The notes under the pieces are model-generated. The model had not been told where the DNA came from and did not search any database. It was given only the letters and a program-made list of their open reading frames with translations. A stretch of 35,514 nt of DNA from a virus (taxonomy: Duplodnaviria; Heunggongvirae; Uroviricota; Caudoviricetes). The stretch covers positions 1 to 35,514 of IMG/VR virus record IMGVR_UViG_2698536443_000010. One strand, written 5' to 3'. The translations under genes were made by a program, and so were the position numbers. Below, piece by piece: positions 4,829-35,514 of the stretch (position 1 is its first letter; every line of letters begins with the position of its first letter).

Positions 4829-4834
4829 ATCACT

Positions 4835-7657
4835 ATGACGGCAGAGTACATCAGGGACTGGCAACAACCGCGCCACGCAGTGGGGCGTGAAGGAACGGGG
4901 ATCCCCGCTCCTGAATCCGCGCTTTCCTCCTGGCTGGATGCCCACCGGGCAGAGAACGAGCGCCGCCAGGAAATGGCTGATGCGGCGTTCTCCGCCACGC
5001 CACTGGGCAACCTGATTAATAAAAGCCTGGACGCACAGGAAAAACAGGACAAAACCATCACACTGGCAGGAGACGCCAGAAAACAGGCACGCGGCGCGGT
5101 GGATGAAGCCATGGCCTCGCTGCGCCTGCTGCCGTCCTATCTGCGCGATCCGCTTATTCGCCACCTCTCCTTCCTGCGCAAAAAACAGGAAGCCGATCGC
5201 CGGAAAGGCAAAAAGAGCTGGCAGGCGGAACGCTATGCACGCGGAACCCTGCGCAAAATATTCGAACGTCTGGATCGCACTGACGGACACTGGCTGACAC
5301 CGGGTTATCGCTCCCTTGCCGGACGCGAACGCCTGGACGATTTGCTTTACCTGCCGCAGCTCAACAAACACCAGATACAGACGCTGGCCACCATGACGGC
5401 GGCGATGTTCAGCAGCACCTTCGAAAAACTCTGCGATGGCTTTGGCGCGACCGATGGCGAACTGACCATGGATGTAACGCTGAAGGCGTATCAGATGCTG
5501 GCCCGCATGGCGTTACACCTGCACATCATGCCTCCACATTATGACGCACTGACAACAGATAAAGACCGGAGGAACGAACCGGACACGGAGCTGCTGCCGG
5601 GCACAATCCTTCGCCTGACCTGTGCGGAATGGTGGAAACGCAAACTGTGGCTGTTACGTTGCGAGTGGAGAGAAGAACAACTCCGCGCCGCCTGTCTGGT
5701 TTCCAGAAAAACATCACCCTATCTGAGCCAGGACGCGTTAAGCGAGTTTCGCGCACAGCGCGAGAAAACACGCGATTTCCTGAAAAGTTTCATGCTGGAA
5801 AATGAAGACGGGTTCACGATTGATCTCGAGACGGTGTATTACGCGGGAGTAAGTAACCCGGTTCACCGTAAAGCAGAAATGATGGCCACCATGAAGGGAC
5901 TGGAACTTCTGGCCGAAGCCCGTGGCGACAGAGCGGTGTTTCTGACCGTCACCTGCCCGTCAAAATACCACGCAACAACGGAGAACGGTCATCCGAACCC
6001 CAAATGGAACGGGGCCACCATGCGCGACTCCAGCGATTACCTGGTTAACACGTTTTTTGCGGCGGTCCGCAAGAAACTGAACCGCGACGGCCTGCGCTGG
6101 TATGGCATCCGCACGGTGGAGCCTCACCATGACGGCACCGTGCACTGGCATATGATGGTCTTTGCTCATCCGGAAGAAATCGACACCATTGTGTCCCACA
6201 CCCGCGATATTGCCATTCAGGAAGATCGTCACGAGCTGGGCGATGACATAACTCCGCGCTTTAAGGCGGAGTATGTAGACGGCTCAAAAGGCACGCCAAC
6301 CAGCTACATCGCCACCTACATCGGGAAAAACCTGGACAGCCGCGCCGTGGATGGCATCGACCCGAAAACGGGCAAGCCACGCGTTGACCACGAAACCGGA
6401 AAATCAATGGCCGAGAGCGTGGAACGCGCCATCGGCTGGGCGCGCCTTCACCGGGTCCGCCAGTTCCAGTTCTTTGGCATCCCCTCCCGCCAGGTATGGC
6501 GTGAACTGCGCCGCCTTGCCAGCCAGATGGCACGCAACCCGGAAGGCCCGCAACGGCTGAAGGATGACGCAATGGATGCGGTTCTTGCCGCCGCTGATGC
6601 CGGATGTTTTGCCACCTACATAGAGAAACAGGGCGGCGTACTTGTTCCACGCAAAGACTACCTGATTCGCACCGCCTACGACCTCGCCGATGAGCTGAAC
6701 GATTACGGCGAACAGAGCGTACAGATTTACGGGATCTGGTCACCACTCATCGGGGAATCCTCCCGTGTGTGCACGCATCCGGATAACTGGAAGCTGGTAA
6801 GACGCAAACCGGAAGCGGAAGACAGCGCCCGCGAAAATGGTTTTGACCTTCAGGGCGGCCCTGCCGCCCCTTGGACTCGTGGCAATAACTGTCCCCGTGT
6901 ACAGGAAACGGACAACAACGGGACAAAACAGCCGGAAGAACGGCCAGCACCGTGGCCGCAGCTCCCTGACGGCGTTGATGTGGATGAATGGATGCGCTCA
7001 CTGAAACGGCACGAACGCCGGGCGCTGATGCGTTCGCTTCGTGACAAACAGGCAAAAAACAGCAGTGATGAAATGCAGAGCTGGACACAGAGCCGCAAAC
7101 AGCAGCGGCCTTTGCCTGATAACCACGAATTACTCGCTAAAGAATGGCGGGAGTCTGCTGAATCTCTCGGTCTGCATATCGGTGAACAACAGATGCAGCA
7201 CCTGTTACGGGGCGGCAGTCTGTACGTTGACGGCAGCATCATTGCACCGCAGGGATTTGAAATTGTACGCAAACCGGATACCCGCCCGGACAGCCGAATC
7301 ACGCAGCTCTGGCAGCGCCTGAGCCGTAATCATGGCGTAAGCAGCACGGAGATCCGCCATAACCCGGTCGCCAGCTATCTGACACAGCTGGGGGCATCAG
7401 ACCCTGAAGCCGCCGCACGCCTGGCATCCACACTTCAGCAGGACCAGAACACCATGAAAACACCCGTTACCGTGCTTTCTGACATGCTGCGCGCCATCCG
7501 CGACGCAGAGCACGCACAGAGAATCAGTGAAACCACTGAACGCGCCAGCCGCAAAGCAGACCTGCTGCGGGGTGGCCTGACCAGTGGAAACAAAAAACAG
7601 ACAGAAACGGGACTCACGAATCCCGTAAATGAGCAAAAAACGCGCAGCGATATATGA
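4835..7657 (+). CDS. A: Replication initiation endonuclease, P2 gpA-like, with long C-terminal extension
   Basis: Central region FLTVTCPSKYHATTENGHPNPKWNG...RWYGIRTVEPHHDGTVHWHMMVFAHP...SYIATYIGKNLD typical of the P2 A rolling-circle initiator; 940 aa. Confidence 0.9.
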   Translation: MTAEYIRDWQQPRHAVGREGTGIPAPESALSSWLDAHRAENERRQEMADAAFSATPLGNLINKSLDAQEKQDKTITLAGDARKQARGAVDEAMASLRLLPSYLRDPLIRHLSFLRKKQEADRRKGKKSWQAERYARGTLRKIFERLDRTDGHWLTPGYRSLAGRERLDDLLYLPQLNKHQIQTLATMTAAMFSSTFEKLCDGFGATDGELTMDVTLKAYQMLARMALHLHIMPPHYDALTTDKDRRNEPDTELLPGTILRLTCAEWWKRKLWLLRCEWREEQLRAACLVSRKTSPYLSQDALSEFRAQREKTRDFLKSFMLENEDGFTIDLETVYYAGVSNPVHRKAEMMATMKGLELLAEARGDRAVFLTVTCPSKYHATTENGHPNPKWNGATMRDSSDYLVNTFFAAVRKKLNRDGLRWYGIRTVEPHHDGTVHWHMMVFAHPEEIDTIVSHTRDIAIQEDRHELGDDITPRFKAEYVDGSKGTPTSYIATYIGKNLDSRAVDGIDPKTGKPRVDHETGKSMAESVERAIGWARLHRVRQFQFFGIPSRQVWRELRRLASQMARNPEGPQRLKDDAMDAVLAAADAGCFATYIEKQGGVLVPRKDYLIRTAYDLADELNDYGEQSVQIYGIWSPLIGESSRVCTHPDNWKLVRRKPEAEDSARENGFDLQGGPAAPWTRGNNCPRVQETDNNGTKQPEERPAPWPQLPDGVDVDEWMRSLKRHERRALMRSLRDKQAKNSSDEMQSWTQSRKQQRPLPDNHELLAKEWRESAESLGLHIGEQQMQHLLRGGSLYVDGSIIAPQGFEIVRKPDTRPDSRITQLWQRLSRNHGVSSTEIRHNPVASYLTQLGASDPEAAARLASTLQQDQNTMKTPVTVLSDMLRAIRDAEHAQRISETTERASRKADLLRGGLTSGNKKQTETGLTNPVNEQKTRSDI
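7605..7629. repeat. 25-bp dyad-symmetric element, copy 1 (aaacgggactcacgaatcccgtaaa), inside the 3' end of A
   Basis: Arms acggga / tcccgt separated by 8 nt; 21/25 identical to copy 2. Confidence 0.7.
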
Positions 7658-7677
7658 AGCGCGCACAAAACAGGCAA

Positions 7678-7702
7678 AAACGGGATTTCAGAATCCCGTA
7701 AA
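7678..7702. repeat. 25-bp dyad-symmetric element, copy 2 (aaacgggatttcagaatcccgtaaa), upstream of parM-like gene
   Basis: Same dyad arms; lies 32 nt upstream of the parM-like start. Confidence 0.7.
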
Positions 7703-7733
7703 CGATTAATTAATCAACATAAGGAAAAGCGAC

Positions 7734-8693
7734 ATGAAAATTTGTATCGACGACGGCTCCACCAACATCAAGCTGGCATGGACTGAGAACGGCGAACGCC
7801 GCAACGCCATCAGCCCGAACAGCTTCAAGTCGGAATGGTCTGCGCCGTTCGGTGGCACGCAGCCCGCGAACTACATGCTTGATGGCGTGCGCTATGGTTT
7901 TGATCCGGTCAGCGATCGCTTTGTCCAGACGACCGACACGCAATACCAATACAGCGATGTGAATGTCATTGCCATTCATCACGCGCTGGTCAAATCAGGC
8001 ATCACACCACAGGAGGTGGATGTGGTTGTCACCCTGCCACTGAGCGAGTATTTCGACACAAACGCACAGCCGGACATGGCCAACATCAACCGCAAAAAAG
8101 CGAACGTTATGCGCCCGGTGGAGTACCAGAACGGCGAAGCATTCACTATCCGTAACGTGCGGGTTATGCCTGAATCCATTCCGGCTGGCTTTAAGGCACT
8201 GGCTGACATGAGTCCGTTTGAATCCCTGCTGATTGTGGATTTGGGCGGAACCACGCTGGATGTGGCAAAGGTTCAGGGGCAACTGGCAGGTATCAGCCAG
8301 GTGTTTTGCGATCCACACGTAGGCGTTTCTCTGATGGCCGATGCCGTACTGGCGGTGATGGCCACTAACGGTATGCGCACCAGTCACCACATCGCCAATA
8401 CCATTATCGAACATCGCCATGATGAAGCCTGGCTGCGCCAGCACATCCACAATGACGCGCATTACGCCAGCCTGATGGCGGTTATTCGTGAAAAGGAAGA
8501 AACACTGAAACAACGCGTGATCCGCGCGCTGGCGGTTTTTTCGGGTTACGGGCGGGTGATGGTTGTCGGTGGAGGGGCGGAGATTGTGGCACCCGCTATC
8601 CGCGAAGCCTGCGGAGTTAATGCGACTTTCATCGCGGACGGGGTGCCACAGTTTGCTCTGGTTAATGGGCTGTACGCAATGGACAAGGAGTAA
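7734..8693 (+). CDS. parM: Actin-like segregation ATPase, ParM/StbA family
   Basis: MKICIDDGSTNIKLAW...YSDVNVIAIHHAL...VMPESIPAG...LLIVDLGGTTLDV...VMVVGGGAEI matches conserved ParM blocks of plasmid R1 as recalled. Confidence 0.85.
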   Translation: MKICIDDGSTNIKLAWTENGERRNAISPNSFKSEWSAPFGGTQPANYMLDGVRYGFDPVSDRFVQTTDTQYQYSDVNVIAIHHALVKSGITPQEVDVVVTLPLSEYFDTNAQPDMANINRKKANVMRPVEYQNGEAFTIRNVRVMPESIPAGFKALADMSPFESLLIVDLGGTTLDVAKVQGQLAGISQVFCDPHVGVSLMADAVLAVMATNGMRTSHHIANTIIEHRHDEAWLRQHIHNDAHYASLMAVIREKEETLKQRVIRALAVFSGYGRVMVVGGGAEIVAPAIREACGVNATFIADGVPQFALVNGLYAMDKE

Positions 8694-8697
8694 ACCA

Positions 8698-9009
8698 ATG
8701 ACGACACCAACCAGACGGATAAGTTTCTATCTGAAGCCTGCGGCCGTCAAGAACGAAAGCGAAGCATGCGCCTGGCTGGACAGCCTTACACCAGAAGCCC
8801 GCAAAAGCGGCCAACGCGTGGCTTTTCTGGCCGGGCTGGCACTTCTGAAAATGAATCCAGCAGAGGCTTACCGACTGGCTGCATGGGCTGACGATGAGGC
8901 GTTATCAGTGACACAAACCAGGACAGAATGCCCCGCGTCACAGCCAGTATCAACCGCACAGATAACCAGTCAGATGGCCGGAAATATCCGGGCATTATTT
9001 CCCGAATAA
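8698..9009 (+). CDS. parR: ParR-like adaptor candidate
   Basis: Immediately downstream of parM with AAGGAG RBS; RRISFYLKP...AGLALL...RALFPE resembles R1 ParR as recalled. Confidence 0.55.
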   Translation: MTTPTRRISFYLKPAAVKNESEACAWLDSLTPEARKSGQRVAFLAGLALLKMNPAEAYRLAAWADDEALSVTQTRTECPASQPVSTAQITSQMAGNIRALFPE

Positions 9010-23958: not shown

Positions 23959-24531
23959 CTATTTATACAATACAGCACCGCTCTTTTTAGTTATATATGT
24001 GCAGTTCGATGGTATATCTTTATTTATAAAAGACATTGCACCTATTTTTACATTATCCCCAATTTTACGGGATAATCCAATGATGCAACAATTAGCTCCG
24101 ATATCAACGTTGCTACCAATTTTTACTCTTGAACCAGGTATGTCACCATCTATCTGTCCAATGGTCGTATTCTGTCGTAACACCAGATTTTCACCAGCAT
24201 CAACAGCAAAATGAACAACAATTCCAGCATGATGGGGAATTGTTAACCCTTTTCCAATATTTGCGCCCAATCCAATTTCACAACCAAATTTGTTAATTAT
24301 TTTACTGTTTAACTTTTTGGCTGCTTTCTTATGTAATTTATTACCATTAATATACATTTCGTTAGCCAACCGCCACCAGAAAAGGAAATTCCGGTTACGC
24401 TGTTTTTTCTCTCTTAAAAGCCTCCAGATATCCATACGTTTCCGCCGAATTACTTCATATTTCCAGAAGTTTTTTAAATTAGTAGAGTTCCCAAATAAAA
24501 CAAAGTGAATTGCCATTAAGTAAGACAGCAC
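23959..24531 (-). CDS. Hexapeptide-repeat (left-handed beta-helix) acetyltransferase, CysE/O-acetyltransferase-like; AT-rich moron
   Basis: Isoleucine-patch repeats IGANIGKGLTIP...VKIGSNVDIGANCCIIG...KIGDNVKIGAMSFI; GTG start at 24531 after AAGGAG RBS (ORF extends to 24564; alternative ATG 24516). Confidence 0.7.
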   Translation of the reverse strand: MLSYLMAIHFVLFGNSTNLKNFWKYEVIRRKRMDIWRLLREKKQRNRNFLFWWRLANEMYINGNKLHKKAAKKLNSKIINKFGCEIGLGANIGKGLTIPHHAGIVVHFAVDAGENLVLRQNTTIGQIDGDIPGSRVKIGSNVDIGANCCIIGLSRKIGDNVKIGAMSFINKDIPSNCTYITKKSGAVLYK

Positions 24532-24687
24532 GATAATCTCCTTAATTATTATTTCAGACGACACATATTATAAGGTTAAGAGATTATAAAATCCTGTTGT
24601 TTGTTATTCAAAAACAATTTTCTGAGAAGGACATACAACAGCAAGTCGCCAGTCACCTTCATCAGGAAATTGGCGACATACGTTAAA

Positions 24688-25182
24688 TCAGAGCAGCCCC
24701 TTAACTGAGCTGGTCGCGCTATTAAGGGATGATGTCACCTTATCTTTGAAGCCGGACAACATATCGCTGAACGATGAGGATTGCAGGCGCTCCCGCAAAT
24801 CCTCATCACAGCGTTCAAGAGTCAGTGAAAATTCTATCTTTTTCGCCTTACCGTAGCGATCAAACTCGGAACGGGTCGTATTCGTTCCGGTCAGGACATA
24901 CATGCCGTAAATCTGCCCGACGCCATCAATCAAAGGCCAGGGTCGTCCTGTATACGCCTGCGTGGTCAGCAGCGACAGCGACACTTCGCCACCTGTAATT
25001 TCAGGATAAAGCACACCAGAAAGAACGATGCGATCATCACCTGCACCGATATACTGCCAGCTTGCTGAACGGTTAACGCGTTCATTTTTCACATGCCGCC
25101 AGCTTTTGTTTTGCTGTAACTGCTGATGCGGCAGCGTGCGCAGCTCAAAAACAAACATGCCGTAGATCATCATCATGGCCAT
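24688..25182 (-). CDS. U: Tail protein, P2 gpU-like
   Basis: SWRH...VNRS...GAGDD...LSG...ITGGEVSLSLLTTQAYTGRPWPLIDG...IYGMYV...LRERLQSSS...SGFKDKVT resemble P2 U. Confidence 0.9.
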   Translation of the reverse strand: MAMMMIYGMFVFELRTLPHQQLQQNKSWRHVKNERVNRSASWQYIGAGDDRIVLSGVLYPEITGGEVSLSLLTTQAYTGRPWPLIDGVGQIYGMYVLTGTNTTRSEFDRYGKAKKIEFSLTLERCDEDLRERLQSSSFSDMLSGFKDKVTSSLNSATSSVKGLL

Positions 25183-25188
25183 GACTCC

Positions 25189-28005
25189 TCAATCTTTATC
25201 GTAAAAACTGCCACGCCCGGCACGGGCGCGCCGTTCCATTTCTGCCCTGACCATTTCACCGACCAGTTTCGCCAGTTCGCGGGGATTCTGCGTAACAACG
25301 TTATGCAGATGAACATGAATTTCACCACCAAATTCGGAGGCAACAGGCTCCCGGTTACGGGAAGTTACAGGAACTGATGCCACTGGAGATCGTATAGCCT
25401 CCGCCACCGGGCGGGAGCTGGCCGCAACAACAGTGACCAGCGCCGGAGGCAGCGGAGCCGGGACCACGGGTGTGATATTAATTGCGGGGGCAGGCTTACT
25501 GACCTGCGCAATCTTCCGCTCCTGCCACTCCCCACGAACAGCAAGTGCCCGGGGCAGGTTTTTAAAGACAATATCGCCGGGGCCAATGCGTTTTTTCGTC
25601 TCCTCAACCAGCTTACCTGTGTTATCAGCAATTTTGCTGAGTCTGCGCAGCGTACCGGTATTGCTGTCTGTGAGCGGTTTATTGTCTTTGGGGTTATCAC
25701 CTCCGGTGCCATTGCCATTTTCCACAGGCTTCGGCGGATTGATTTTCGCCAGGTCCCCCTGAAGCAAGGCAACCTTGTCCTGAAGAATGGCCGCACGCTG
25801 TGCGTCTTCGATTTTCTTGCGCGCCCTTTCCGCTTCATCCGGAAGCACACCAAGCTTTTCAAGTATCCACGCCAGCGTATCCAGCAACATTTTTGCAGGT
25901 GTCAGAACAAGTTGTAACGCACCGCCAAGAACGTTACCGAATATCTCGCCAGCACTGGTACATTTATCCAGAGTTTCCTTGCTGGACTCCATCGGTGACA
26001 GCAGCGATTTAAACCAGTTAAACACCTGGCTGATCCCACTCCCGATTGCGTCAAAAACAGGACTAAACCGTTCAAAGGTTTCGCGCAACGGGGTCAGCCT
26101 TTCCATAATCCCGCTGAACACCCCGGCAAAAAATGCCCTGATGGGATCCCAGTATTTCCAGATAAGAACGGCAGCTCCGGCAAGCGCAGCCACGATAAGA
26201 CCAACCGGACTGAACAACGCCCCGATAGCGCCTCCCAGCAAAGAAACGGAACCCGTCACCATTCCCCATAGTGCTGGCAGAACCCTGACAGCATTCATTG
26301 ATCCGGTCAGGAGGGAAAAACCAAGACGCAGTTTTGCCAGCGGGCCAGCAAGCACACCAATAGCCAGCGACAACGAGCCAACCGTTGCAGTCATTGCCAG
26401 CAGTGCACCGCCTGCAATCAGTAGCTGGCGCGTCAGTGCGGGATGGGCCTGCGCCAGCGCCGTCACCTTTGATACCACACGCGTGAGCCACTGCGTGACA
26501 GAACGCAGCGGACCGTCAATCAGATCTGCAATGCGGATGCGCAACCCTTCCCATGCACTGCTGAGTGATTTCAGATCGCCGTCAAGGTTGTTGGCCATAA
26601 CCTTTGCCGTGCGTTCAGCCTCACCGCGCGCACCTTCAAGTTCTTTTCTCAGTTTGGGTAAGGAGCCGTCACCTGCCGCATCAACGAGGGCCATAAATGA
26701 TGTGAAAGCCTCTTCTCCGGCAATGTCCTTAAAGAACGATACCCGGTCAACTTCCCCGTATTTGCGGGTAGCTTTATAAAGGTCAGCCAGCACATCCTCC
26801 ATCGGACGCATTTTGCCCCCGGCATCCGAGACAGACACGCCAAGCTCTTTCAGCGCCTCTGCTGCCGCCTTTGGCGGTGATGCCAGACGAGCCAGGCTGG
26901 CACGCATTGCCGTCCCGGCATCACTCCCTCTGATACCCATATTCGCCAGCACGCCCGCCATCGCTGCGGCCTGCTCCAGCGATATTCCCAGCTTGCCCGC
27001 CACCGGACCTGCATATTTCATGGTTTCGCCCAGTGCGCGAAGGTCAGTGTTGGTACGGGTAAATGCTGCGGTGAGCGTGTCGCCAACCCGGTCCATCTGG
27101 TCAGCAGAAAGGCCGAACTGCGTCAGGATATTTGAGCCAATATCCGCCGTCTCGCCGAGATCCATGCCGCCAGCCGTTGCCATGCTCAGCACGCCCGGAA
27201 GCGCAGCCTGAATGGCCTGCGGAGTGAAGCCAGCCATTGCAAGAAATGCCTGCCCACTGGCGGCATCGCCTGCGGTGAACTGCGTTTCAGAGCCAAGTTT
27301 TAACGCCTGCTCACGCAGAGCCTTAAACTGCGGGCTGTTTTTGTCGATTCGCGTCAGTGCCTGAACGCGGGACATCTCTTTGCCGAACCCGATCGCAGGC
27401 TGTAAAAAACGCCCGGCAGCATAGCCGCCAGCCGCTGCCGCACCAATTGCCAGCGCACCACCTGTTTTCAGTTTTCCCGCGGTTTCCTGCACGCGCGAAT
27501 ACCGCTCACGCGCCCGCGTTACACGCGCAAGCGCCTGCCGTTCGCGTTCAAGCTGGTTGTTGTACTGTTCGGTGCGTCTGATGGCCTGCTGGATGGTGTT
27601 ATCGCTGCCTGTCAGGGAAATGCCGTGGCGTTTCAGCTCTCCGCCAAGCTCCCGCATTTTCTGAATTTCCCGTGTGCGCGATTCATTCAGGCGTTCAAGC
27701 CGGGTGCTTAACTGCTGCATCAGCTTTTGTTGTTTTTCGCTGAGCACTGTACCCGTGCGTTGTAACTGATTAAGGGCGTTAAGCTGGCGTCGTGCTTTCA
27801 CGATACCCGCATCCGCTTTACTGACAGCGTCGCGGGCGCGCTCAAATGAACGCGCCTGACGCTCGAGATTTTTGATCGCCCCCTGCGTTCGCTGGATGGA
27901 GTCACCAAACTGCCCCATCAGGCGGCGGGCGTTTTCGGCAGGCCGGGTCAGCCTGTCAACGGCGCTGAAAGCGACCCGGATATCAAGAGTCTTCATTGTC
28001 TGCAT
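25189..28005 (-). CDS. T: Tail tape measure protein, P2 gpT-like
   Basis: ~940-aa ORF with coiled-coil N-terminus and Gly/Ala-rich hydrophobic core, downstream of E/E'; start at ATG 28005 (alternatives ATG 27996, GTG 28050). Confidence 0.85.
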   Translation of the reverse strand: MQTMKTLDIRVAFSAVDRLTRPAENARRLMGQFGDSIQRTQGAIKNLERQARSFERARDAVSKADAGIVKARRQLNALNQLQRTGTVLSEKQQKLMQQLSTRLERLNESRTREIQKMRELGGELKRHGISLTGSDNTIQQAIRRTEQYNNQLERERQALARVTRARERYSRVQETAGKLKTGGALAIGAAAAGGYAAGRFLQPAIGFGKEMSRVQALTRIDKNSPQFKALREQALKLGSETQFTAGDAASGQAFLAMAGFTPQAIQAALPGVLSMATAGGMDLGETADIGSNILTQFGLSADQMDRVGDTLTAAFTRTNTDLRALGETMKYAGPVAGKLGISLEQAAAMAGVLANMGIRGSDAGTAMRASLARLASPPKAAAEALKELGVSVSDAGGKMRPMEDVLADLYKATRKYGEVDRVSFFKDIAGEEAFTSFMALVDAAGDGSLPKLRKELEGARGEAERTAKVMANNLDGDLKSLSSAWEGLRIRIADLIDGPLRSVTQWLTRVVSKVTALAQAHPALTRQLLIAGGALLAMTATVGSLSLAIGVLAGPLAKLRLGFSLLTGSMNAVRVLPALWGMVTGSVSLLGGAIGALFSPVGLIVAALAGAAVLIWKYWDPIRAFFAGVFSGIMERLTPLRETFERFSPVFDAIGSGISQVFNWFKSLLSPMESSKETLDKCTSAGEIFGNVLGGALQLVLTPAKMLLDTLAWILEKLGVLPDEAERARKKIEDAQRAAILQDKVALLQGDLAKINPPKPVENGNGTGGDNPKDNKPLTDSNTGTLRRLSKIADNTGKLVEETKKRIGPGDIVFKNLPRALAVRGEWQERKIAQVSKPAPAINITPVVPAPLPPALVTVVAASSRPVAEAIRSPVASVPVTSRNREPVASEFGGEIHVHLHNVVTQNPRELAKLVGEMVRAEMERRARAGRGSFYDKD

Positions 28006-28512
28006 TCCCGCTGCGAAGTGCCGCCCGCTCACGCCAGCTAACCACTTCACCGGGCGTCATCATGAAGATTTCGGCGGGCGACCAGTTAAAAATAACGGCA
28101 ATATCTGCCACAAAGTCTTCTATGTGCTCAAAGCACACAACCGTGATCAGGCTTCCGTCGCCTGTTCGTTCTTCCCGCCAGAGTCCGCACCGCTCAAAAA
28201 ATTTACGGCAACCACACATAACTGAATAAAGTCACGGGATGCCATTTTTTTGATCGTCACTTCATCCAGTCGCGGTGATGTCACGCGTGACAGCAGCGTA
28301 AACATGGCTTCCGCTTTCAGATTCAGCACATCAGACAGCGACAAATCTCGCAGAGATCCAGCCTGCTTAATAGCCCCGGAGATCTCCACATACGTGATTT
28401 TTTCGCCGCCTCGCTCAATTGGTTGGGTAAGTTTTACGCCACACTCACTGGTTTCTTTCACAGTGTCAGCAACTACCGTGTTTTCGGTATCGATGTTTTT
28501 CGTCTCTTTCAT
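27983..28512 (-). CDS. E+E' fusion produced by programmed -1 frameshift
   Basis: Heptamer T TTT TTG in the E zero frame (minus strand, 28201..28195); the -1 frame stays open to 27983, overlapping the T start. Confidence 0.65.
28147..28512 (-). CDS. E: Tail assembly chaperone, P2 gpE-like (zero-frame product)
   Basis: Position between FII and T; contains the TTTTTTG slip site near its 3' end. Confidence 0.8.
   Translation of the reverse strand: MKETKNIDTENTVVADTVKETSECGVKLTQPIERGGEKITYVEISGAIKQAGSLRDLSLSDVLNLKAEAMFTLLSRVTSPRLDEVTIKKMASRDFIQLCVVAVNFLSGADSGGKNEQATEA
28195..28201 (-). other. Slippery heptamer TTTTTTG (-1 programmed ribosomal frameshift site)
   Basis: Zero-frame codons AAT TTT TTG; -1 frame reads AAA TTT TTT GAG. 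Confidence 0.7.
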
Positions 28513-28566
28513 CAGGAAACTCCTTTCAGTCAGAGGCGACGCACTGCGCCGCCTGCATATTACTTA

Positions 28567-29079
28567 TCAGCCAAGCCCGAGCGCGGAACGGATGCGATCG
28601 GGCACAATGTCCTTGCCGTCCTTCCGGTAAATGAAGTTCAGCAGGTCAATCTCCCACAACGGGCGATCGTTAACACTCAGCTTGTAGTAGGTGTTTTTAA
28701 TGGCGTAAGTGTGTGATGTGGCTTCGCCCTGTTTGGCTTCCCCCATATCAATTTCCGTCACACGTCCGCGCATTTCGACTTCATACAGGTCGCTTTCTGC
28801 ATCGGTGTAATATTCACCCGCAAAACGCAGCAGCGTGCCGTCAATCGTGCCGCCATACTTAAGGAACAGCTCACGAACTGCGCCCCCCATGACAAAGCTC
28901 GCATCAAGCGCGGAGTCGTCCAGACCGAGATCAATACTTACCGCACCCATCATGCCACCACCCCGGTAGCTGTCGGTTTTGCGCGTCAGCTTAGGCAGAG
29001 TGACGGACGTCACCTTACCCACTTCGTTTTCACCATCCACAAACAGCGTAAAAAAGCGAAGATGTTTTGACACAGCCAT
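28567..29079 (-). CDS. FII: Tail tube protein, P2 gpFII-like
   Basis: 170-aa ORF directly downstream of FI; size and position match P2 FII. Confidence 0.85.
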   Translation of the reverse strand: MAVSKHLRFFTLFVDGENEVGKVTSVTLPKLTRKTDSYRGGGMMGAVSIDLGLDDSALDASFVMGGAVRELFLKYGGTIDGTLLRFAGEYYTDAESDLYEVEMRGRVTEIDMGEAKQGEATSHTYAIKNTYYKLSVNDRPLWEIDLLNFIYRKDGKDIVPDRIRSALGLG

Positions 29080-30263
29080 CAGGCACCTCCCAGCACCGCA
29101 AATGCGGGACCAAAGAATTCATCAGTAAACGTCTGGTAAAGCTCCATGTCTTCCAGTGGCGGAACGGGCGTATATTTGTAGCGAATACGCACACGCCCCT
29201 GACGTAAATCCGTGGTGCCGTTATCCACCACGTCATACCAGCACGACGCCCCAATCAGTTTCCCGGCAGTAACCAGTGAATCCAGTTTTGCCCTGATGGC
29301 ACTGATAACATCTTTCACGTTCGCAGGCGTCAGTGGACTGTCGATGGTTTCAAACTGCGCTTCCGCAATTGAATCAGCCAGCACCTGTGCGGTTCGGGTA
29401 TACACCTCAAAGATGTAGGCGTTCGTTTCCGGTGTGCGGTTGCCCCAGAAGCGGAACCCGTTGCGACGAATAATGGTCGTGATTTCTTTGTTGTTGAGGC
29501 TGTTGGCATCACTGTCTTCGGCCTGCAACGACCAGAACACATGCCTCGACATCCCCAGCACATTCTTAACCGGAACGTTGGAGAGTGATTTGTGCCATCC
29601 CTGCTCATGGTCAATGTACGCACGAAGGCCGCACGCATAGGCAGGCGCGGGGAACGTTTCGTTTTTGCCACTTTTCGGGTTGTAGGCGATGAAGTCCGGC
29701 CATAAGAGCATCACCTCACGTTCGTTGAATTTCTGGCGGTAGGTAATCGCATCAGCCATCGTGTCACAGCCATGACATGAGGCATACACAAACGCGCGCA
29801 GTTTACCCGCAATCACGCACAGGGATTTTGTCACCGCCTCCGTATCCAGCTCCGGCGCGGCCAGAATACGCGGACGGTATCCGATGCTTTCATCCTGCTC
29901 TGCAACAAGCAGCGCATACATCCCCGTATAGCTGCCGTCAGATTCAGAACCACCGATAACCAGTTGATCCTGCGTCTTTCCGTCTTCTTCTTTGTGTTCA
30001 GCCACGCGAACGACGATCACCTTTGTGCTCACCTGGTCTGCAATGGCCTTAAGCGCACGATAAAGCGTCCCCGTTGTCCCGCATTTTCCCAGCACGTCAT
30101 TGACGCGGGTCAGCAGTGTGGGCTTGTTCAGCGGGAACAGCTCCGCGTCCGCATCATCCGCCGTTGCCACGATACCGATAACACTGGAATCAACATCATT
30201 AATCGCTGTTACCAGGTCGGTACTTTCCGTAACACGGGCACCATGAAAACGAGTTTCACTCAT
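29079..30263 (-). CDS. FI: Tail sheath protein, P2 gpFI-like
   Basis: 394-aa ORF at the head of the FI-FII-E-T-U block; size and position match P2 FI. Confidence 0.85.
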   Translation of the reverse strand: MSETRFHGARVTESTDLVTAINDVDSSVIGIVATADDADAELFPLNKPTLLTRVNDVLGKCGTTGTLYRALKAIADQVSTKVIVVRVAEHKEEDGKTQDQLVIGGSESDGSYTGMYALLVAEQDESIGYRPRILAAPELDTEAVTKSLCVIAGKLRAFVYASCHGCDTMADAITYRQKFNEREVMLLWPDFIAYNPKSGKNETFPAPAYACGLRAYIDHEQGWHKSLSNVPVKNVLGMSRHVFWSLQAEDSDANSLNNKEITTIIRRNGFRFWGNRTPETNAYIFEVYTRTAQVLADSIAEAQFETIDSPLTPANVKDVISAIRAKLDSLVTAGKLIGASCWYDVVDNGTTDLRQGRVRIRYKYTPVPPLEDMELYQTFTDEFFGPAFAVLGGA

Positions 30264-30420
30264 AGCTTCAGCCCCTTGTATCCGTTAAATGATTCGGCAA
30301 CAATCATCACCCACCACGCGCGTAATCTCACTCCTGCGCCGTTCTCCCGCCACGGCGACAACAAAAAGCAGTAACCCCCTCCGCACGCACATGCGACCAT
30401 GCCGCACAGGGAGGGAACAG
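30264..30420. promoter_or_regulatory. Divergent intergenic region between FI (minus) and D (plus); presumed promoters
   Basis: 157 bp between divergent starts; no TGT-N12-ACA element found by eye. Confidence 0.35.
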
Positions 30421-31524
30421 ATGACCGACACCACCATGCAATTGCTCAGTCAGGGCACAGACCCCGTGAAAATGCCGGATTTTGATATTCTCGCGGAGGG
30501 TAAAACGCTGTCAGGCGTGGCAGAGCGCCTGATGAGCCTGTCACTGACCGACAACCGGGGATTTGAAGCGGACCAGCTCACCATCACGCTGGATGATGCG
30601 GATGGTCAGTTGCAGCTACCGCCACGGGGCGCGCGCCTGACGGTTCTCATTGGCTGGAAAGGAGAACCGCTGACAGAAAAAGGCACTTACATTGTTGATG
30701 AAATCGCTCACGAAGGACCGCCGGACAGGCTGACTGTTTCAGCCAGAAGCGCAGATTTTCGGGATGAATTTAACGTTAAACGTGAGGTGTCCTGGCATGA
30801 TGTGACCGTTGAGCGTGTGGTATCCGCCATCGCTCATCGGTATGGTCTGAAACCGCAAATCAGCGAAATGCTGATGGATATCGAAATCGACCACGCCGAC
30901 CAGACCGAAGAAAGCGACATGTCCTTCCTTACGCGCATGGCGGAAATGCTGGGCGCAATCACCACAGTAAAAAGCGGCAATCTGTTATTCATCATGCCAG
31001 GTGGTGGCGTGAACGCACAGGGCCAGCCGTTGCCCTCGTTCGCCATTACACGCAGCAGCGGCGATCGCCATCAGTTCCGTATTGCTGACCGCGAGGCGTA
31101 TACGGGGGTACGCGCCTACTGGCTTGATCTTAATTACGGGAAAAAGAAAAAAGTCAGCGTGAAACGCCGTAAACCGCCAAAACCCAAAAAGGAGAAAAGC
31201 AGCAGCCGTGAAGGTGATTATATGGAAGGCGCGGAAGGCAATGTGTTTGTGTTACGCAAGACTTATCAGAACGAGCAGGCAGCAAGACGCGCAGCGGCGG
31301 CAAAGTGGCAGCAGCTACAACGCGGAGCCGCAGCGTTCTCCATCACACTGGCACGTGGACGCGCAGAACTCTACCCCGAAATGCATGGCACGGTAACAGG
31401 CTTTAAAAGCGAGATTGATAATCAGGACTGGATTATTGCGAAAGCCGAGCACACCATTGATAACAGCGGCTTTACCACGCAGCTTGAGCTTGAGGCAAAA
31501 ATCCCGGAATGGATAGCAGAATGA
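30421..31524 (+). CDS. D: Late control / tail protein, P2 gpD-like
   Basis: LSLTDNRGFEADQL...RSADFR...SWHD...FLTRLAE...ITRSSGDRH...YTGV...REGDYM...NVF...KWQQLQRG...FTTQLELE resemble P2 D; GGGAGGG RBS before ATG 30421. Confidence 0.9.
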   Translation: MTDTTMQLLSQGTDPVKMPDFDILAEGKTLSGVAERLMSLSLTDNRGFEADQLTITLDDADGQLQLPPRGARLTVLIGWKGEPLTEKGTYIVDEIAHEGPPDRLTVSARSADFRDEFNVKREVSWHDVTVERVVSAIAHRYGLKPQISEMLMDIEIDHADQTEESDMSFLTRMAEMLGAITTVKSGNLLFIMPGGGVNAQGQPLPSFAITRSSGDRHQFRIADREAYTGVRAYWLDLNYGKKKKVSVKRRKPPKPKKEKSSSREGDYMEGAEGNVFVLRKTYQNEQAARRAAAAKWQQLQRGAAAFSITLARGRAELYPEMHGTVTGFKSEIDNQDWIIAKAEHTIDNSGFTTQLELEAKIPEWIAE

Positions 31525-31688
31525 GACTCTTAAATGTATTAGTCCAGACACGTACTAGCGGGCTAAACGGCACAGTCTTATCTGACCATCTGCCCCTAAC
31601 ACAGAGCAGACGGTCCTTGATCTTACCCACTAATAATGGACGCGCGACTAATATAATTTATTGCTTTTTATTTATACCTCACTGAGAT

Positions 31689-32324
31689 TTAGCGAGCTAA
31701 TATATTCAAAGAATTTAACAATTGAGTGTCGAGTGTTTCAGTTGCAGGAATCGGTAATCCATTCGCAATGCGGTAATTTTTCACAGACAGCCTTGTGGAT
31801 GGCCCCATTATGCCGTCAATATTTCCGTTATAAAATCCCCTGTCCAGCAATGCGAACTGAACTCGCATAATCAATCGCTTACGTTTCTCTGCATCAGAAG
31901 CAAGCCCATTACTCGTACGGTTAACCTCTGAAGTTCCAACAGAACTCGTGTTAGTGGTTCTATTATTATCGTTAGAACGAAGTGCACGCACCGAGGAAGA
32001 GGACGATGAGGAACTTGCACCTGAACTTGAAGAACCAGATGAACGTGGTGAGCTGTATGTTTTTGGATAATAGGGGGTACTTCCACCATAGTATCCACCA
32101 CCTGATGAGGATCTATGAGAGCTATGGCTCCTATGAGAGCTATGGCTTCGATGCCCTGCGATATAAAATGGGACTTCCGTGTTAAGTGGAGCTATCACTA
32201 AATCATGCTCATTAAGAGTCATACCAGGTAAATCACTCGCTCCTGTAGATGAATCGCTTGCCCATACAGAATTGTTGAGAGCCAAAAATCCCGGAAGTAG
32301 AGCAGCAAAATTAAACTTTTTCAT
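31689..32324 (-). CDS. hxsA: His-Xaa-Ser repeat protein (HxsA-like): signal peptide, HRS/HSS repeat tract, Ser/Gly-rich linker, peptidoglycan-binding-like C-terminal domain
   Basis: MKKFNFAALLPGFLALNNSVWA signal peptide; HRSHSSHRSHSSHRS; C-terminal LIMRVQFALLDRGFYNGNIDGIMGPSTRLSVKNYRIANGLP; ATGA overlap with upstream radical-SAM gene. Confidence 0.7.
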   Translation of the reverse strand: MKKFNFAALLPGFLALNNSVWASDSSTGASDLPGMTLNEHDLVIAPLNTEVPFYIAGHRSHSSHRSHSSHRSSSGGGYYGGSTPYYPKTYSSPRSSGSSSSGASSSSSSSSVRALRSNDNNRTTNTSSVGTSEVNRTSNGLASDAEKRKRLIMRVQFALLDRGFYNGNIDGIMGPSTRLSVKNYRIANGLPIPATETLDTQLLNSLNILAR

Positions 32325-33433
32325 AAAATTGGTCTCGGTGATTGATGAAAACGGCCTTTTGAGGAACTGAAATAGCCAGCACAGGAAGGCTTCTGAGTAC
32401 ATTCATCACATTCTTTTGGATAGTAATTTTTCCAATCAGAGATCGACTGAACAGCAAGCTCCCTAGCCCTTTCAGGAAGATAACACAAAGGATAATTAAA
32501 AATTGTCAGAGGTATGCCTGACCTGTATGCAGCGTCTATGGCAGAGATTATTTTCTCACTATAACTACTGTGATCAATGAAGATGGTGGACCAGTTTTTT
32601 CGTGCCCAACCGATAGGCTCCAACCCCATAAGGGAAATCTGATTGATGTTGGAGAACACACGGCCAGCGAATTCTACAATATCATCCAATTCGGTATAGT
32701 TAGCCAGTGTAGGAATAACTCTAAGTTCGATATTAATCCCCAAGTTTCCTGCATTGATTAACCCTTTAACCGTTTCATTAAATGCGCCATCACTCCCTAC
32801 CAGATGATCATGCACAAGTGGTCTTGATGAGTAGAGCGGGATACCAAAGGTGATTTTGATCTTTTTGCTTCGCTTTGCCATTTCCTGTGTAAAGTTGATA
32901 TCAGCAAATTTGCGTCCGTTTGTTAAAACATGTAAAGCAGTATCTGGTGAATTCTCGATGATAAAATCAATGAAGTGAAGGAAGTCATCCCCATATAGCA
33001 AAGGTTCACCACCGCTGACCCCAACAACTCCGTTCAAGCCAAATGAAGCTATAGCAAGAGCTGATTGGGTAAGTAGCCAGTCATCATTTATTTTCTTTGG
33101 TGGCTGCGAACAAAACAGACACAAGTTATTGCAGCGTTCCGTAACTAAGACAGTATTATGATTGGCTTTGCGTGACAGAATAACGCGTATCATATTGCCA
33201 TTGTTGATTATCCCAATATCTCCATCTTCAATTGACTCAAATAATTCAGTGCTAATAACAGAGAAATCAAAGCATGGTGGAATGGCATCATTATTGCCTT
33301 CAGCAACTACTAGCAAATTGGGCAAAAAGAATAAAGGGTTCACTGGTTTTTGTTTGCATAACCGATAGAACCCCGTGGGCACGTTCTCTGTAGAAGCAAA
33401 ATGAAAGATATCGTTCCTGATAACCTCAGACAT
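32321..33433 (-). CDS. hxsB: Radical SAM enzyme with SPASM-like C-terminus (HxsB-like maturase; B/C assignment tentative)
   Basis: CNNLCLFC (CX3CX2C), GGEPLL motif, C-terminal Cys cluster CDECTQKPSCAGYF. Confidence 0.75.
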   Translation of the reverse strand: MSEVIRNDIFHFASTENVPTGFYRLCKQKPVNPLFFLPNLLVVAEGNNDAIPPCFDFSVISTELFESIEDGDIGIINNGNMIRVILSRKANHNTVLVTERCNNLCLFCSQPPKKINDDWLLTQSALAIASFGLNGVVGVSGGEPLLYGDDFLHFIDFIIENSPDTALHVLTNGRKFADINFTQEMAKRSKKIKITFGIPLYSSRPLVHDHLVGSDGAFNETVKGLINAGNLGINIELRVIPTLANYTELDDIVEFAGRVFSNINQISLMGLEPIGWARKNWSTIFIDHSSYSEKIISAIDAAYRSGIPLTIFNYPLCYLPERARELAVQSISDWKNYYPKECDECTQKPSCAGYFSSSKGRFHQSPRPIL

Positions 33434-34814
33434 ATGCCCATCCTTTTAGCATCTCAGCCTTCGAACCACCCTCTGAGATGCAGTTCATCAGATACCTGAA
33501 CATCCCCTTGTGATATTGACAAAACGTTGAACGACTCCTATCACCGACAGGCTCACCCTGTACACTTATGTTCTGGCATGGATCTGAACCACAAAATGGT
33601 TGATATGCACATGTATCACAACCTGGCAGAGCAAAATTGAACGATGAACTCAATACTGCGTTATAGTAAGGACTATCAGAAAATGATAGCGTCTTAACTT
33701 CACCCGCACTGAACTCCGTTTCAGGATTCACCTTCTGCAACATACGGCTCTCATCGCTACCATATACTCGACCGTCATAATTGAAAAGAATACTGTTAAG
33801 CACGACTCCACTTGGAGACTTTAAATCCGCATAACCACTAAAACCGGGATTGAAGATCCTTTTCAGATGAATGGAGGCCGAATGTTCCACAACCCTTATC
33901 CCTTCATTATTAATCTTAAGGATTTCATCTATCAACGAGGCATAGAAGCTGAAGTATTCGTCCATAGAAAAGGTGAAAGAAGCTTTTTGTGCAAACCCAT
34001 AGGGACTAACAGGTCGGATAAACATGTCCTTGAGACCAAGAGACAAGTGAGCCTGAACAATCGATTCAGGACGTTTGATAAGCTCTTTAGTAACTGTAGT
34101 AACCGTTGCAACGCGGCCAGCACCTAAAGAGTGTTTGATAGCCTCTACCCCTGACACTGTTCTACTGTACGCAAGCCCACGACCAAGAATTCGATTACTG
34201 TTGTGAACAACTTCCTCACCATCAAGCGACACAGAGAACGTTATGTTCCGGTCTCTCGACCATTCAATCATATCCTCATTCAAGACGGACAGACTTGATG
34301 CCACCACCATCTCAAAATTGGTTCTTCCCAGCGTTTCAGCACATTGATCATAGATGCTCTGAATTAAATCAAACCGCAAGAGAGGCTCCCCACCCTGTAT
34401 CTCTATTTTGTAAGGTGGCGTTGATAGTTTTTTAATAGCCGAAATAATATCGGGGATGAGCTCAGGATTTAGGTCGTAACCTGAGGCATTAACAGAAGCT
34501 CTACTAACCTGGCAATACTTGCATGTATGGTCACAACGTAATGTGGGTACAATCATGAAAATTGGCCTGACAGCCAGTTCATTCATCAATCGTTTTGCAA
34601 AAGCAGAACTTAAAGCATAGGGAGTTATAGCAGATGAGCTTTCACTGGTTATGAAAAGCTTACTTTCTAGCACGTTTGATTGCTCCGAACTAATTCGCTC
34701 ATCAGAAAGATCAATAAGGTCTTGCTCACCAATGAAATGATGAAAACCTGCAAGGTTGCTTATAAACACCTGTCCATTAGGCAATCTGTCAAAATTAAAT
34801 GGCATCAATTCCAT
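33426..34814 (-). CDS. hxsC: Radical SAM enzyme with SPASM-like C-terminus (HxsC-like maturase; B/C assignment tentative)
   Basis: CDHTCKYC (CX3CX2C), GGEPLL motif, C-terminal CDTCAYQPFCGSDPC. Confidence 0.75.
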   Translation of the reverse strand: MELMPFNFDRLPNGQVFISNLAGFHHFIGEQDLIDLSDERISSEQSNVLESKLFITSESSSAITPYALSSAFAKRLMNELAVRPIFMIVPTLRCDHTCKYCQVSRASVNASGYDLNPELIPDIISAIKKLSTPPYKIEIQGGEPLLRFDLIQSIYDQCAETLGRTNFEMVVASSLSVLNEDMIEWSRDRNITFSVSLDGEEVVHNSNRILGRGLAYSRTVSGVEAIKHSLGAGRVATVTTVTKELIKRPESIVQAHLSLGLKDMFIRPVSPYGFAQKASFTFSMDEYFSFYASLIDEILKINNEGIRVVEHSASIHLKRIFNPGFSGYADLKSPSGVVLNSILFNYDGRVYGSDESRMLQKVNPETEFSAGEVKTLSFSDSPYYNAVLSSSFNFALPGCDTCAYQPFCGSDPCQNISVQGEPVGDRSRSTFCQYHKGMFRYLMNCISEGGSKAEMLKGWAYV

Positions 34815-35128
34815 TATGAAAGCCTCTCATCAACACTGCGAAGCACTTTATGGACAATAGAGTCTCTCAACGCCCCTGTTTTATGCTGTAGCTTTTCTCG
34901 CAAAGAGTAATCATTAAGCAGCCTATCGAATTCATAAAGGAATTTGGGATTATCGTTTTCAAAAGAGATTATCCAGTGGGAAACGTCTTCATGGAGTTTC
35001 CATCGAGTAAGCGGAGTCATCCAATATAGACTATTGCGTATAACCCATTCAGAATATAGTTCTTTCTCAAACACTCTTTCGCTCATTGCAATTATCTTCC
35101 AATACAAATATTCATGATCAGCAACCAC
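34814..35128 (-). CDS. hxsD: HxsD-like small protein with LLNDYSLRE motif
   Basis: FDRLLNDYSLREKLQ matches the LLNDYxLRE signature; first gene of the operon; start uncertain (GTG 35128 or ATG 35086). Confidence 0.65.
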   Translation of the reverse strand: MVADHEYLYWKIIAMSERVFEKELYSEWVIRNSLYWMTPLTRWKLHEDVSHWIISFENDNPKFLYEFDRLLNDYSLREKLQHKTGALRDSIVHKVLRSVDERLS

Positions 35129-35162
35129 TTTAAAGCGGATTTTTCCTATGGCAACAATAATA

Positions 35163-35182
35163 TAACATATCCATAGATATGT
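35163..35182. repeat. Perfect 20-bp palindrome AACATATC-cata-GATATGTT in the hxsD / ogr divergent intergenic region
   Basis: Read directly; candidate operator. Confidence 0.6.
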
Positions 35183-35338
35183 TACAGATGCCTTGTTTCC
35201 CGTTGACTAATACATCACAACGTTAGTAATGGCTATCACAATTGTGAACTTCCACTTTTCACACAAGACAAGCTGTTAATTGGAATCTGTATCAGTACAA
35301 CTTAGAATAGAGGAAGCACCACAGTAAGGGAGGTCGCT

Positions 35339-35509
35339 ATGTTCCGTTGTCCACTTTGTGGCGCATCTGCCCGTATCCGCACTAGTCGTCCGGAAAATGA
35401 TTCAAACACTGTGCGGCAAAAGTGGATTTGCCCCTATATTTCCAGACATCTGTTATCACTTAACCCATTACAAGCCCGCTGCCGCAGATATTCCCGTGGC
35501 GAGCGATAA
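35339..35509 (+). CDS. ogr: Ogr/Delta-family late transcription activator, divergent or possibly frameshifted (56 aa)
   Basis: N-terminus MFRCPLCGASARIRTSR resembles P2 Ogr MFHCPLC..ARTSR; strong RBS AGGGAGG; C-terminal half lacks the expected second Cys pair. Confidence 0.55.
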   Translation: MFRCPLCGASARIRTSRPENDSNTVRQKWICPYISRHLLSLNPLQARCRRYSRGER

Positions 35510-35514
35510 CCCAG

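Follow-up and report, generated by a model that had tools for sequence, protein, structure and literature searches.

Results

A four-gene hxs cassette in a prophage

The window, by which we mean the whole stretch of 35,514 nucleotides analysed (IMG/VR virus record IMGVR_UViG_2698536443_000010), holds four hxs genes on one strand between the tail gene D and a truncated ogr (Table 1). The cassette spans positions 31689–35086, or reaches 35128 if a GTG start is taken for hxsD. Families were assigned with the curated NCBIfam equivalog cut-offs of TIGR03976–TIGR03979. All four products scored above these cut-offs, with full-length matches and intact reading frames, and this four-family match to HXS is far beyond chance. 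Further, Pfam Radical_SAM matched both HxsB and HxsC. These searches bear out the first-pass annotation, which had named the genes HxsD/HxsC/HxsB/HxsA and described two of the products as radical-SAM enzymes from the letters alone. In PADLOC v2, which has no HXS model, the only matches were weak ones between the viperin model and the radical SAM cores.

The genes overlap by 1, 8 and 4 nt (TAATG at 34812–34816, an 8-nt overlap at 33426–33433 and ATGA at 32321–32324), and all open reading frames and overlaps quoted earlier for four coupled minus-strand genes were recovered. The same was true of the quoted motifs, namely LLNDYSLRE, CDHTCKYC in HxsB, CNNLCLFC in HxsC and HRSHSSHRSHSSHRS at residues 58–72 of HxsA. 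The arrangement hxsD-hxsB-hxsC-hxsA, together with translational coupling, is the pattern found in 99.6% of HXS systems (PMC13128918). The longest open reading frame of hxsA extends to 32402 (237 aa).

Table 1. Features of the hxs locus and its flanks (positions in the window).
Feature	Position	Strand	Description
Tail gene D (gpD-like, late control D / VgrG-like)	30421..31524	+	ORF; left flank
Inserted block	31522..35297		3,776 bp, GC 0.414; defined against sister phages
Stem-loop downstream of hxsA	31584..31615	-	13-bp stem, without U-tract
hxsA	31689..32324	-	effector precursor, 211 aa from MKKF; TIGR03979, 161.3 bits (cut-off 121.65)
hxsC	32321..33433	-	radical SAM maturase, 370 aa; TIGR03977, 397.5 bits (cut-off 267.9)
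hxsB	33426..34814	-	radical SAM maturase, 462 aa; TIGR03978, 560 bits (cut-off 370), model positions 1-466/466
hxsD	34814..35086	-	90 aa from ATG; LYW and LLNDYSLRE motifs; TIGR03976, 90.6 bits (cut-off 50)
Upstream region moving with the cassette	35087..35260	-	putative own promoter; homology to island/plasmid copies
ogr, 5' part	35339..35423	+	28 codons, truncated; late-gene activator; right flank
IS2 end inside ogr	35424..35514		also the window end; matches IS2 of many records at 100%

Start codon and fold of HxsD

HxsD had been read as a 104-aa protein. The open reading frame from GTG 35128 does exist, but the true start is most likely ATG 35086, which gives 90 aa. In support of this start, the RefSeq annotation of identical loci gives hxsD a length of 273 nt. 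Homologues of HxsD begin MAM..., where the same stretch reads IAM... here, and positions in the published protein are therefore two higher than ours.

Sequence searches with HxsD against the PDB and Pfam gave nothing meaningful. An AF2 model was obtained at a pLDDT of 95, and we considered HxsD as a PqqD-like RiPP recognition element. This candidate was rejected, as the protein lacks a PqqD/RRE-like fold (a winged helix in which three helices come after a three-stranded sheet).

The maturases HxsB and HxsC

Both enzymes carry the CX3CX2C motif of radical SAM proteins (C94/C98/C101 in HxsB and C101/C105/C108 in HxsC). At the C-terminus, six cysteines are clustered in HxsB (C399/C402/C408/C413/C432/C445) and only four are present in HxsC (C317/C342/C345/C351). 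The nearest solved structures were CteB for HxsB (5wgg, E 7.8e-6) and SkfB for HxsC (6efn, E 7.9e-4), and HxsB aligned to PapB and anSME through its six-cysteine C-terminus. Like HxsB and HxsC, these four enzymes combine a CX3CX2C core with C-terminal auxiliary-cluster cysteines and a ribosomally made substrate. The HXS pair differs from such SPASM/twitch maturases in that its similarity to the solved structures is weak and in that it acts on an exported protein of 211 aa, not on a short peptide.

At E<=10, the Pfam SPASM model matched neither the last 124 aa of HxsB nor the last 99 aa of HxsC. The description of both C-termini as SPASM-like has loose support at best: the cysteines are there, whereas the Pfam model is unmatched and HxsC, with four cysteines, appears twitch-like at most.

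The HxsA precursor

HxsA is laid out as a signal peptide (residues 1–22, MKKFNFAALLPGFLALNNSVWA), a pro-region (23–57) and five HxS repeats (58–72), with SHRSS at 69–73 followed by a Ser/Gly-rich linker. A C-terminal peptidoglycan-binding-like domain occupies about 175–235, counted on the 237-aa open reading frame; PG_binding_1 scored 22.0 bits, slightly below Pfam's 23, inside the full-length match to the HxsA model.

Compared with four other variants, the first 93 codons of hxsA carried 29–35 nucleotide differences and no amino-acid change. Identity of HxsB, HxsC and HxsD fell to 62–80% in the two more distant of these variants. Change of this synonymous-only kind suggests selection on the substrate, and we count it for the HXS reading.

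Insertion site in the prophage

The tail gene D has 94–96% DNA identity to D of phages Chuche and P88_4B11, and in RefSeq it appears either as 'contractile injection system protein, VgrG/Pvc8 family' or as 'phage late control D'. In both phages D and ogr are spaced by 42 bp. Positions 24681–31521 of the window align to Chuche 1081–7924, and positions 35298–35423 to Chuche 7935–8060. The element is thus a P88/Xuanwuvirus-like, P2-related prophage and the hxs block a cargo insertion between D and ogr, where sister-phage alignment and annotations place it in agreement with the first reading of the locus. In the O104:H4 and IHE3034 prophages, the same site holds other cargo on the same strand, either a DUF3800 gene or a 340-aa open reading frame.

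An AT-rich cassette on a GC-richer backbone had also been claimed, and the GC content of positions 31522–35297 is indeed 0.414 vs about 0.55 for the structural genes. Conserved flanks, absence or replacement in relatives and deviant composition, the marks of a moron, are all seen in the block. Recent acquisition is plausible at most, as the nearest non-phage copies are about 90–91% identical in DNA.

Cargo hotspots of P2-like phages have been described between gpA and the portal gene (old/tin) and in the tail genes (Z/fun) (PMC9122126, Rousset et al. 2022; bioRxiv 10.64898/2026.02.27.708500). Like their contents, the hxs block is AT-rich, has its own orientation between conserved genes, is swapped in relatives and is common to islands and plasmids. 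In contrast, the D–ogr junction is not among the hotspots named in the available parts of these two sources, in which 'Hxs' occurs 0 times. Such surveys will have missed HXS because their tools have no HXS models.

The prophage in the window is damaged and decaying. An IS end lies at the left edge of the window, and ogr is cut by IS2; the intact Ogr of O26:H11 11368 has 86 aa, with which the window agrees through MFRCPLCGASARIRTSRPENDSNTVRQK and diverges beyond. Strain 11368 carries the hxs cassette in identical form. This exact IS2–ogr junction was found in no complete E. coli genome of the collection. Among sister loci, IS2, IS3 or IS4-family insertions lie in hxsC, and one sister remnant has IS2 there.

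Upstream region and downstream hairpin

Homology upstream of hxsD continues to 35190 in island copies and to 35260 in a Klebsiella plasmid copy. Since these 100–170 bp move with the cassette between replicons, the genes presumably have a promoter of their own in this region. Sigma-70-like matches lie at 35185–35157 and 35154–35127; their count is no higher than in shuffled sequences (12 found, 9.8 expected).

Downstream of hxsA, the minus strand of 31515–31700 folds at -60.2 kcal/mol (z = -3.97). The stem-loop found here has its stronger form in the minus-strand transcript, with G-U pairs at three positions, and it may serve as a 3' end or a stabilising hairpin. A terminator scan called no intrinsic terminator after hxsA.

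Distribution on mobile elements

Among 154 hxs-positive complete E. coli genomes, 46 (30%) carry the genes at the D junction. At three loci examined, other E. coli copies lay in islands bearing an integrase and a relaxase, two of them beside ssrA. The island neighbours at the examined loci were Gabija-like ATPase and helicase open reading frames, along with genes bearing Abi, TOPRIM and ABC-three-component annotations. At 90–91% DNA identity, the cassette occurs in ssrA-linked islands and on a Klebsiella IncFIB conjugative plasmid, and hxsB was found in a further 418 plasmid records, mostly conjugative and mostly from Klebsiella.

The phage-borne form was seen only in E. coli genomes, with O26, ETEC and STEC isolates among the carriers of this allele, and in three IMG/VR contigs. 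No isolated P2-like phage with hxs was present among 50,697 phage records, where the only matches were a Leptospira phage (30% identity) and a faecal contig, and no P2-like flanks surrounded hxs in 34 species-representative genomes.

Comparison with the characterized E. coli operon

The HXS operon of E. coli strain MEM (CP012378) is an anti-phage defence (Li et al., Nat Commun 2026;17:3910; PMC13128918), reported in a bioRxiv preprint in January 2026 and in the Nat Commun paper in March 2026. HxsB, HxsC and HxsD mature HxsA by N-terminal processing and a change of +8 Da on SHRSS; mature HxsA is periplasmic, where mass spectrometry found its fragment 48–214, and delays the entry of phage DNA (PMC13128918). 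Entry of T7 DNA shifts from about 8–12 min to 30–50 min, and escape mutations map to gp15 and gp16, two proteins of the ejectosome (PMC13128918). Restriction covered 110 of 113 coliphages and needed all four genes as well as the peptidoglycan-binding domain, with unchanged adsorption and no abortive death; knock-outs and point mutants connect it with the four genes and the HxS repeats (PMC13128918). These data come from one laboratory and a plasmid clone, and the authors leave the +8 Da chemistry and the DNA-binding model unresolved (PMC13128918).

By residue numbering, the window retains all residues at which mutation abolished function in that study. This includes C98/C101 and C399/C402 of HxsB, C105/C108 and C342/C345 of HxsC, the HxsA signal peptide (1–22), its five HxS repeats and SHRSS within the peptide 48–78, and in HxsD the LYW and LLNDYxLRE motifs as well as Y21, D59 and R63, which correspond to the mutated Y23, D61 and R65 (PMC13128918). 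The two operons share the four families, gene order, cysteine numbering, signal peptide length, number of HxS repeats and HxsD motifs. They differ in the length of HxsA (211 aa here, 214 aa in MEM) and of HxsD (90 aa vs 92 aa, an effect of the first Met codon being ATT here), and the MEM operon is described as typically chromosomal, whereas the present copy lies inside a P2-like prophage.

Discussion

We consider the block to be an HXS anti-phage system that is complete, probably functional and carried as cargo by a P88/Xuanwuvirus-like, P2-related prophage, with a probability of roughly 0.8. Expression, activity and each biochemical step of this copy are inferred by orthology from the E. coli operon. 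By that analogy, HxsB and HxsC, the latter complexed with the small protein HxsD, would act on the precursor HxsA in the cytoplasm, and matured HxsA would pass to the periplasm and be held at the peptidoglycan through its C-terminal domain. There it would delay or block the translocation of incoming phage DNA, leaving adsorption unaffected and the cell alive. Expression would probably be driven by a promoter of the cassette and be uncoupled from the Ogr-dependent late genes. A defence or exclusion role had been put forward in the first-pass annotation as a hypothesis, and it matches the published experiments on the E. coli operon (PMC13128918); the accompanying statement that neither a biochemical nor a biological function was known is out of date, both having been reported in 2026.

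A prophage-encoded HXS would therefore be a broad superinfection-exclusion module for the lysogen. Further phage-encoded superinfection exclusion systems also block DNA entry. T4 Imm and Sp, discussed in PMC13128918, are likewise envelope functions of a (pro)phage that stop the DNA of a second phage while the cell survives. However, they have no sequence relationship to HXS, in which maturation of a secreted protein depends on a pair of radical SAM enzymes plus a helper, and HXS acted against diverse coliphages, not close relatives only (PMC13128918).

It is improbable that the cassette is an inert passenger, unexpressed or no longer active in a decaying prophage. The IS insertions at both window ends, one of them in ogr, and those in hxsC of sister loci would fit such a fate, as would a putative promoter with consensus matches at chance level. 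Against it, the four frames are intact and full length relative to the models, all functionally tested residues are kept, changes in the 5' region of hxsA are synonymous only, and the upstream 100–170 bp travel with the cassette. An even lower probability is given to lysogenic conversion unrelated to phages, in which a His-rich periplasmic protein would bind metal or modify the cell wall and so alter STEC/ETEC fitness or virulence. The His-rich repeat, the peptidoglycan-binding-like domain and the occurrence of the phage-borne allele in O26, ETEC and STEC isolates speak for this role, but the published mutants link phage restriction to all four genes and the HxS repeats (PMC13128918), the island neighbours at the examined loci look like defence genes, and none of the papers found describes a virulence or metal phenotype.

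It is very improbable indeed that the cassette yields a diffusible product of RiPP type, either a bacteriocin or a signal, from the HxsA N-terminus in place of a wall-anchored effector. Among radical SAM enzymes, HxsB and HxsC most resemble those that modify peptides, for example PapB, CteB and SkfB, and HxsA is cleaved N-terminally (PMC13128918); yet the large fragment in the periplasm and the need for the peptidoglycan-binding domain (PMC13128918) speak against such a product, and the cassette has neither an exporter nor an immunity gene.

The HXS system and its anti-phage function are already known. Since what a His-Xaa-Ser cassette does was answered in 2026, the present locus no longer opens that question. 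Its remaining value lies in a phage lineage that carries HXS at a defined insertion site, and the invariant 93-residue N-terminus of HxsA is a concrete lead for the maturation chemistry. In print HXS has been presented as a chromosomal system of the host, set apart from phage exclusion, and the prophage, island and plasmid context also qualifies this view.

A more speculative proposal, which we regard as unlikely on present evidence, is that HXS would not be an 'intrinsic bacterial' defence but a module spread almost wholly by mobile elements, namely P2-like prophages, ssrA islands and conjugative plasmids, and that a contractile-tailed P2-like phage might carry it because of its own insensitivity. 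The only phages that escaped HXS in the published panel were T4, a second Tequatrovirus and P1 (PMC13128918). All three have contractile tails. If the proposal is true, the prophage would shut out most of its competitors, and phages released from it would nevertheless be able to infect hosts that carry HXS.

The prophage-borne cassette is a complete His-Xaa-Ser system

The four predicted proteins were searched against NCBIfam profiles with curated equivalog cut-offs. All four gave essentially full-length matches above their cut-offs (see the table), which agrees with the HxsA-D identities proposed in the first-pass annotation. ORF calls likewise placed the four minus-strand reading frames where that annotation had put them, and the three junction overlaps and every motif that it quoted were found in the sequence. 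Further, Pfam Radical_SAM matches in both HxsB and HxsC bear out the proposed pair of radical-SAM enzymes. The SPASM-like character suggested for their C-termini was supported in part: C-terminal cysteines are present (six in HxsB, four in HxsC), but no Pfam model matched these segments at E<=10. In the C-terminus of HxsA, the Pfam PG_binding_1 match was borderline (22.0 bits vs. 23). As for HxsD, the frame held, while the length of 104 amino acids is probably too long. Its relatives start with MAM, the first codon of which is ATT in the window, and, in line with RefSeq and the homologues, we favour a predicted protein of 90 amino acids.

Features of the window, with NCBIfam scores and conserved HXS residues
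Feature	Position	Strand	NCBIfam model	Score (bits)	Cut-off (bits)	Remarks
IS3-family terminal sequence	1-105					left end
D	30421-31524	plus				tail gene
hxsA	31689-32324	minus	TIGR03979	161.3	121.65	MKKF start, giving ATGA overlap with hxsC stop; signal peptide 1-22, five HxS repeats 58-72, SHRSS 69-73 inside peptide 48-78
hxsC	32321-33433	minus	TIGR03977	397.5	267.9	C105/C108, C342/C345
hxsB	33426-34814	minus	TIGR03978	560	370	C98/C101, C399/C402
hxsD	34814-35086 from ATG; 34814-35128 from first-pass GTG	minus	TIGR03976	90.6	50	Y21, D59, R63 (Y23, D61, R65 of PMC13128918; two-residue N-terminal offset)
ogr	35339-35423					cut after codon 28
IS2 end	35424-35514					right end

The first-pass annotation knew of no function for such a cassette. 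The system is, however, already known: hxsD, hxsB, hxsC and hxsA are so named in RefSeq for genomes with identical sequence (e.g., O26:H11 strain 11368), and a biological role with an outline mechanism was published in 2026, in a January preprint and in Nature Communications on 13 March (Li et al., PMC13128918). In that study, an hxsDBCA operon from E. coli conferred restriction of 110 of 113 coliphages, and all four genes were needed. Adsorption was unchanged and an abortive-infection phenotype was absent. The entry of T7 DNA was delayed, to 30-50 min as against about 8-12 min, and escape mutations mapped to the ejectosome proteins gp15 and gp16. HxsA was found to be periplasmic and N-terminally processed, with +8 Da on SHRSS; neither the signal peptide nor the peptidoglycan-binding domain nor any one of the HxS repeats was dispensable, and HxsD was bound by HxsC. 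The modification chemistry and the manner in which DNA entry is blocked were left open by the authors.

All residues mutated in that study are kept at the same position in the window copy. Its function would be transferred by orthology and residue conservation rather than by a measured identity to the tested operon, and the first-pass interpretation of the cassette was essentially right.

The N-terminal part of HxsA is strongly constrained

Codons of hxsA were compared between the window and four variants (L003, L004, L005 and L050, the last a K. pneumoniae IncFIB plasmid). Over the first 93 codons there were 29-35 nucleotide differences, 100% of them synonymous, which indicates that the N-terminal third is under very strong constraint, while the last 62 codons held 5-12 amino-acid changes. 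In the two more distant variants, identity of HxsB, HxsC and HxsD drops to 62-80%. The constrained third comprises the signal peptide, the pro-region and the repeats, followed by a Gly/Tyr/Pro stretch; this pattern fits a region that would serve both in recognition by the maturases and in the activity of the effector. Mature HxsA contains 19 Lys+Arg, 13 Asp+Glu and 6 His; the published idea of an electrostatic DNA trap therefore depends chiefly on the repeat segment of 15 residues.

HxsD was also considered as a PqqD-like recognition element. This was rejected: modelled with confidence (pLDDT 95), the protein shows a strand-helix-strand-strand-long-helix fold and has generic structural neighbours only.

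The D-ogr junction is a cargo position in P2-related prophages

Between IS ends at both sides, the window holds a P2-related prophage, which in O26 relatives is located between btuC and ihfA; the window resembles a contig from a draft assembly that broke off at an IS copy at each end. The left IS3-family end is inserted in a DUF1640-like gene beside the prophage integrase (1-105, 66-575). The layout is P88/Xuanwuvirus-like, with an FI-FII-E-T-U block on the strand opposite to D, then ogr and a hok-like gene. This orientation (24688-31524) is normal in the P88/Xuanwuvirus-like phages Chuche and P88_4B11, in contrast with the classical P2 gene order, where the tail block is not opposite D; a short divergent region separates FI and D. 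For D itself, RefSeq annotates identical loci (30289-31524) with a 264-aa "VgrG/Pvc8 family" protein and a small overlapping pseudogene, while the ORF and phage records favour about 367-369 aa with a start near 30421.

In Chuche and P88_4B11, ogr starts 42 bp after the stop codon of D. In the window, 3,776 bp (31522-35297) replace 10 bp of these sister phages, and the cassette is AT-rich as first noted (GC 0.414 vs. about 0.55 in head and tail genes). Other prophages carry other minus-strand cargo at the same junction, namely a DUF3800 gene in O104:H4 FWSEC0009 (L051, 6373-7542) and a 340-aa hypothetical ORF in IHE3034 (L052, 4402-5424). The reading of the cassette as a moron is therefore upheld, and the D-ogr junction is a variable cargo hotspot, one not named in the available passages of the P2-hotspot literature.

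At the right end, IS2 cuts ogr ahead of its second Cys pair, a junction found in none of the complete E. coli genomes of the collection. In the window prophage, activation of the late genes has probably been lost, which would leave it locked in and defective; hxs is intact.

Other features of the prophage were also observed. Between the convergent genes D and hxsA there is a 13-bp stem-loop (31584-31615) that has no U-tract and whose pairing is better on the hxs transcript, via three G-U pairs. The classical Z/fun cargo position, flanked by the tail-fibre assembly gene and gpU, is a pocket of GC 0.40 that encodes a 201-aa protein (23959-24564, minus strand); the gene at this position in a sister O26 prophage is annotated in RefSeq as a serine acetyltransferase. 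The main P2 hotspot, between the portal gene and replication gene A, holds genes for a ParM-like protein and a small partition protein (7734-9009), an arrangement described by Rousset et al. (2022) in about a quarter of P2-like phages.

Related cassettes reside on islands, plasmids and prophages

The cassette core (31686-35190) shares 91% DNA identity with an ssrA-linked, relaxase-bearing island of E. coli EC4 and about 72% with two other island variants; the longest shared stretch (31609-35260, 90.3%) is with a Klebsiella IncFIB conjugative plasmid. Among 5,426 complete E. coli genomes, 154 carry hxsBC: 46 at >=99% identity, 45 at 90-95% and 63 near 71%. The D-hxsA junction occurs in exactly 46, so that 30% of hxs-positive genomes have hxs beside this D, close to the 23% prophage overlap obtained with geNomad (PMC13128918). 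Conversely, of the 1,137 genomes that have this end of the D gene, about 4% hold hxs there. P2-like flanks surrounded hxs in 0 of 34 species-representative loci.

Three IMG/VR contigs have the same phage context, and another four resemble integrase islands, with Gabija-like genes nearby. Close HxsB relatives were absent from isolated phage records and were encoded by 418 plasmid records (322 from Klebsiella; 331 predicted conjugative, e.g., L050, 5729-9126). Such carriage is the probable reason for the high prevalence of HXS that PMC13128918 reports for Klebsiella.

On islands, a DUF6119/TIGR04141 "sporadically distributed" gene often directly follows hxsA (e.g., L003, 9657-11300), as seen in 11 of the 34 species-representative loci and one IMG/VR contig (also L012, L016, L017, L019, L022, L026, L028, L029, L033, L035 and L040). 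It is absent from phage-borne and plasmid-borne cassettes, and the sole literature mention of DUF6119 found concerns an unrelated plant gene family.

In E. coli TD225-C4 (L001, 9190-13923), what remains of the same prophage is degraded and has IS2 inside hxsC. Insertions of IS3-, IS2- and IS4-family elements in hxsC recur in other genomes, indicating that HXS has been repeatedly inactivated as well as retained. Taken together, carriage by a phage, a defined site of insertion and a distribution over mobile elements refine the known picture modestly, and this setting qualifies the framing of HXS as "chromosomal, not phage" in PMC13128918 rather than being something new.
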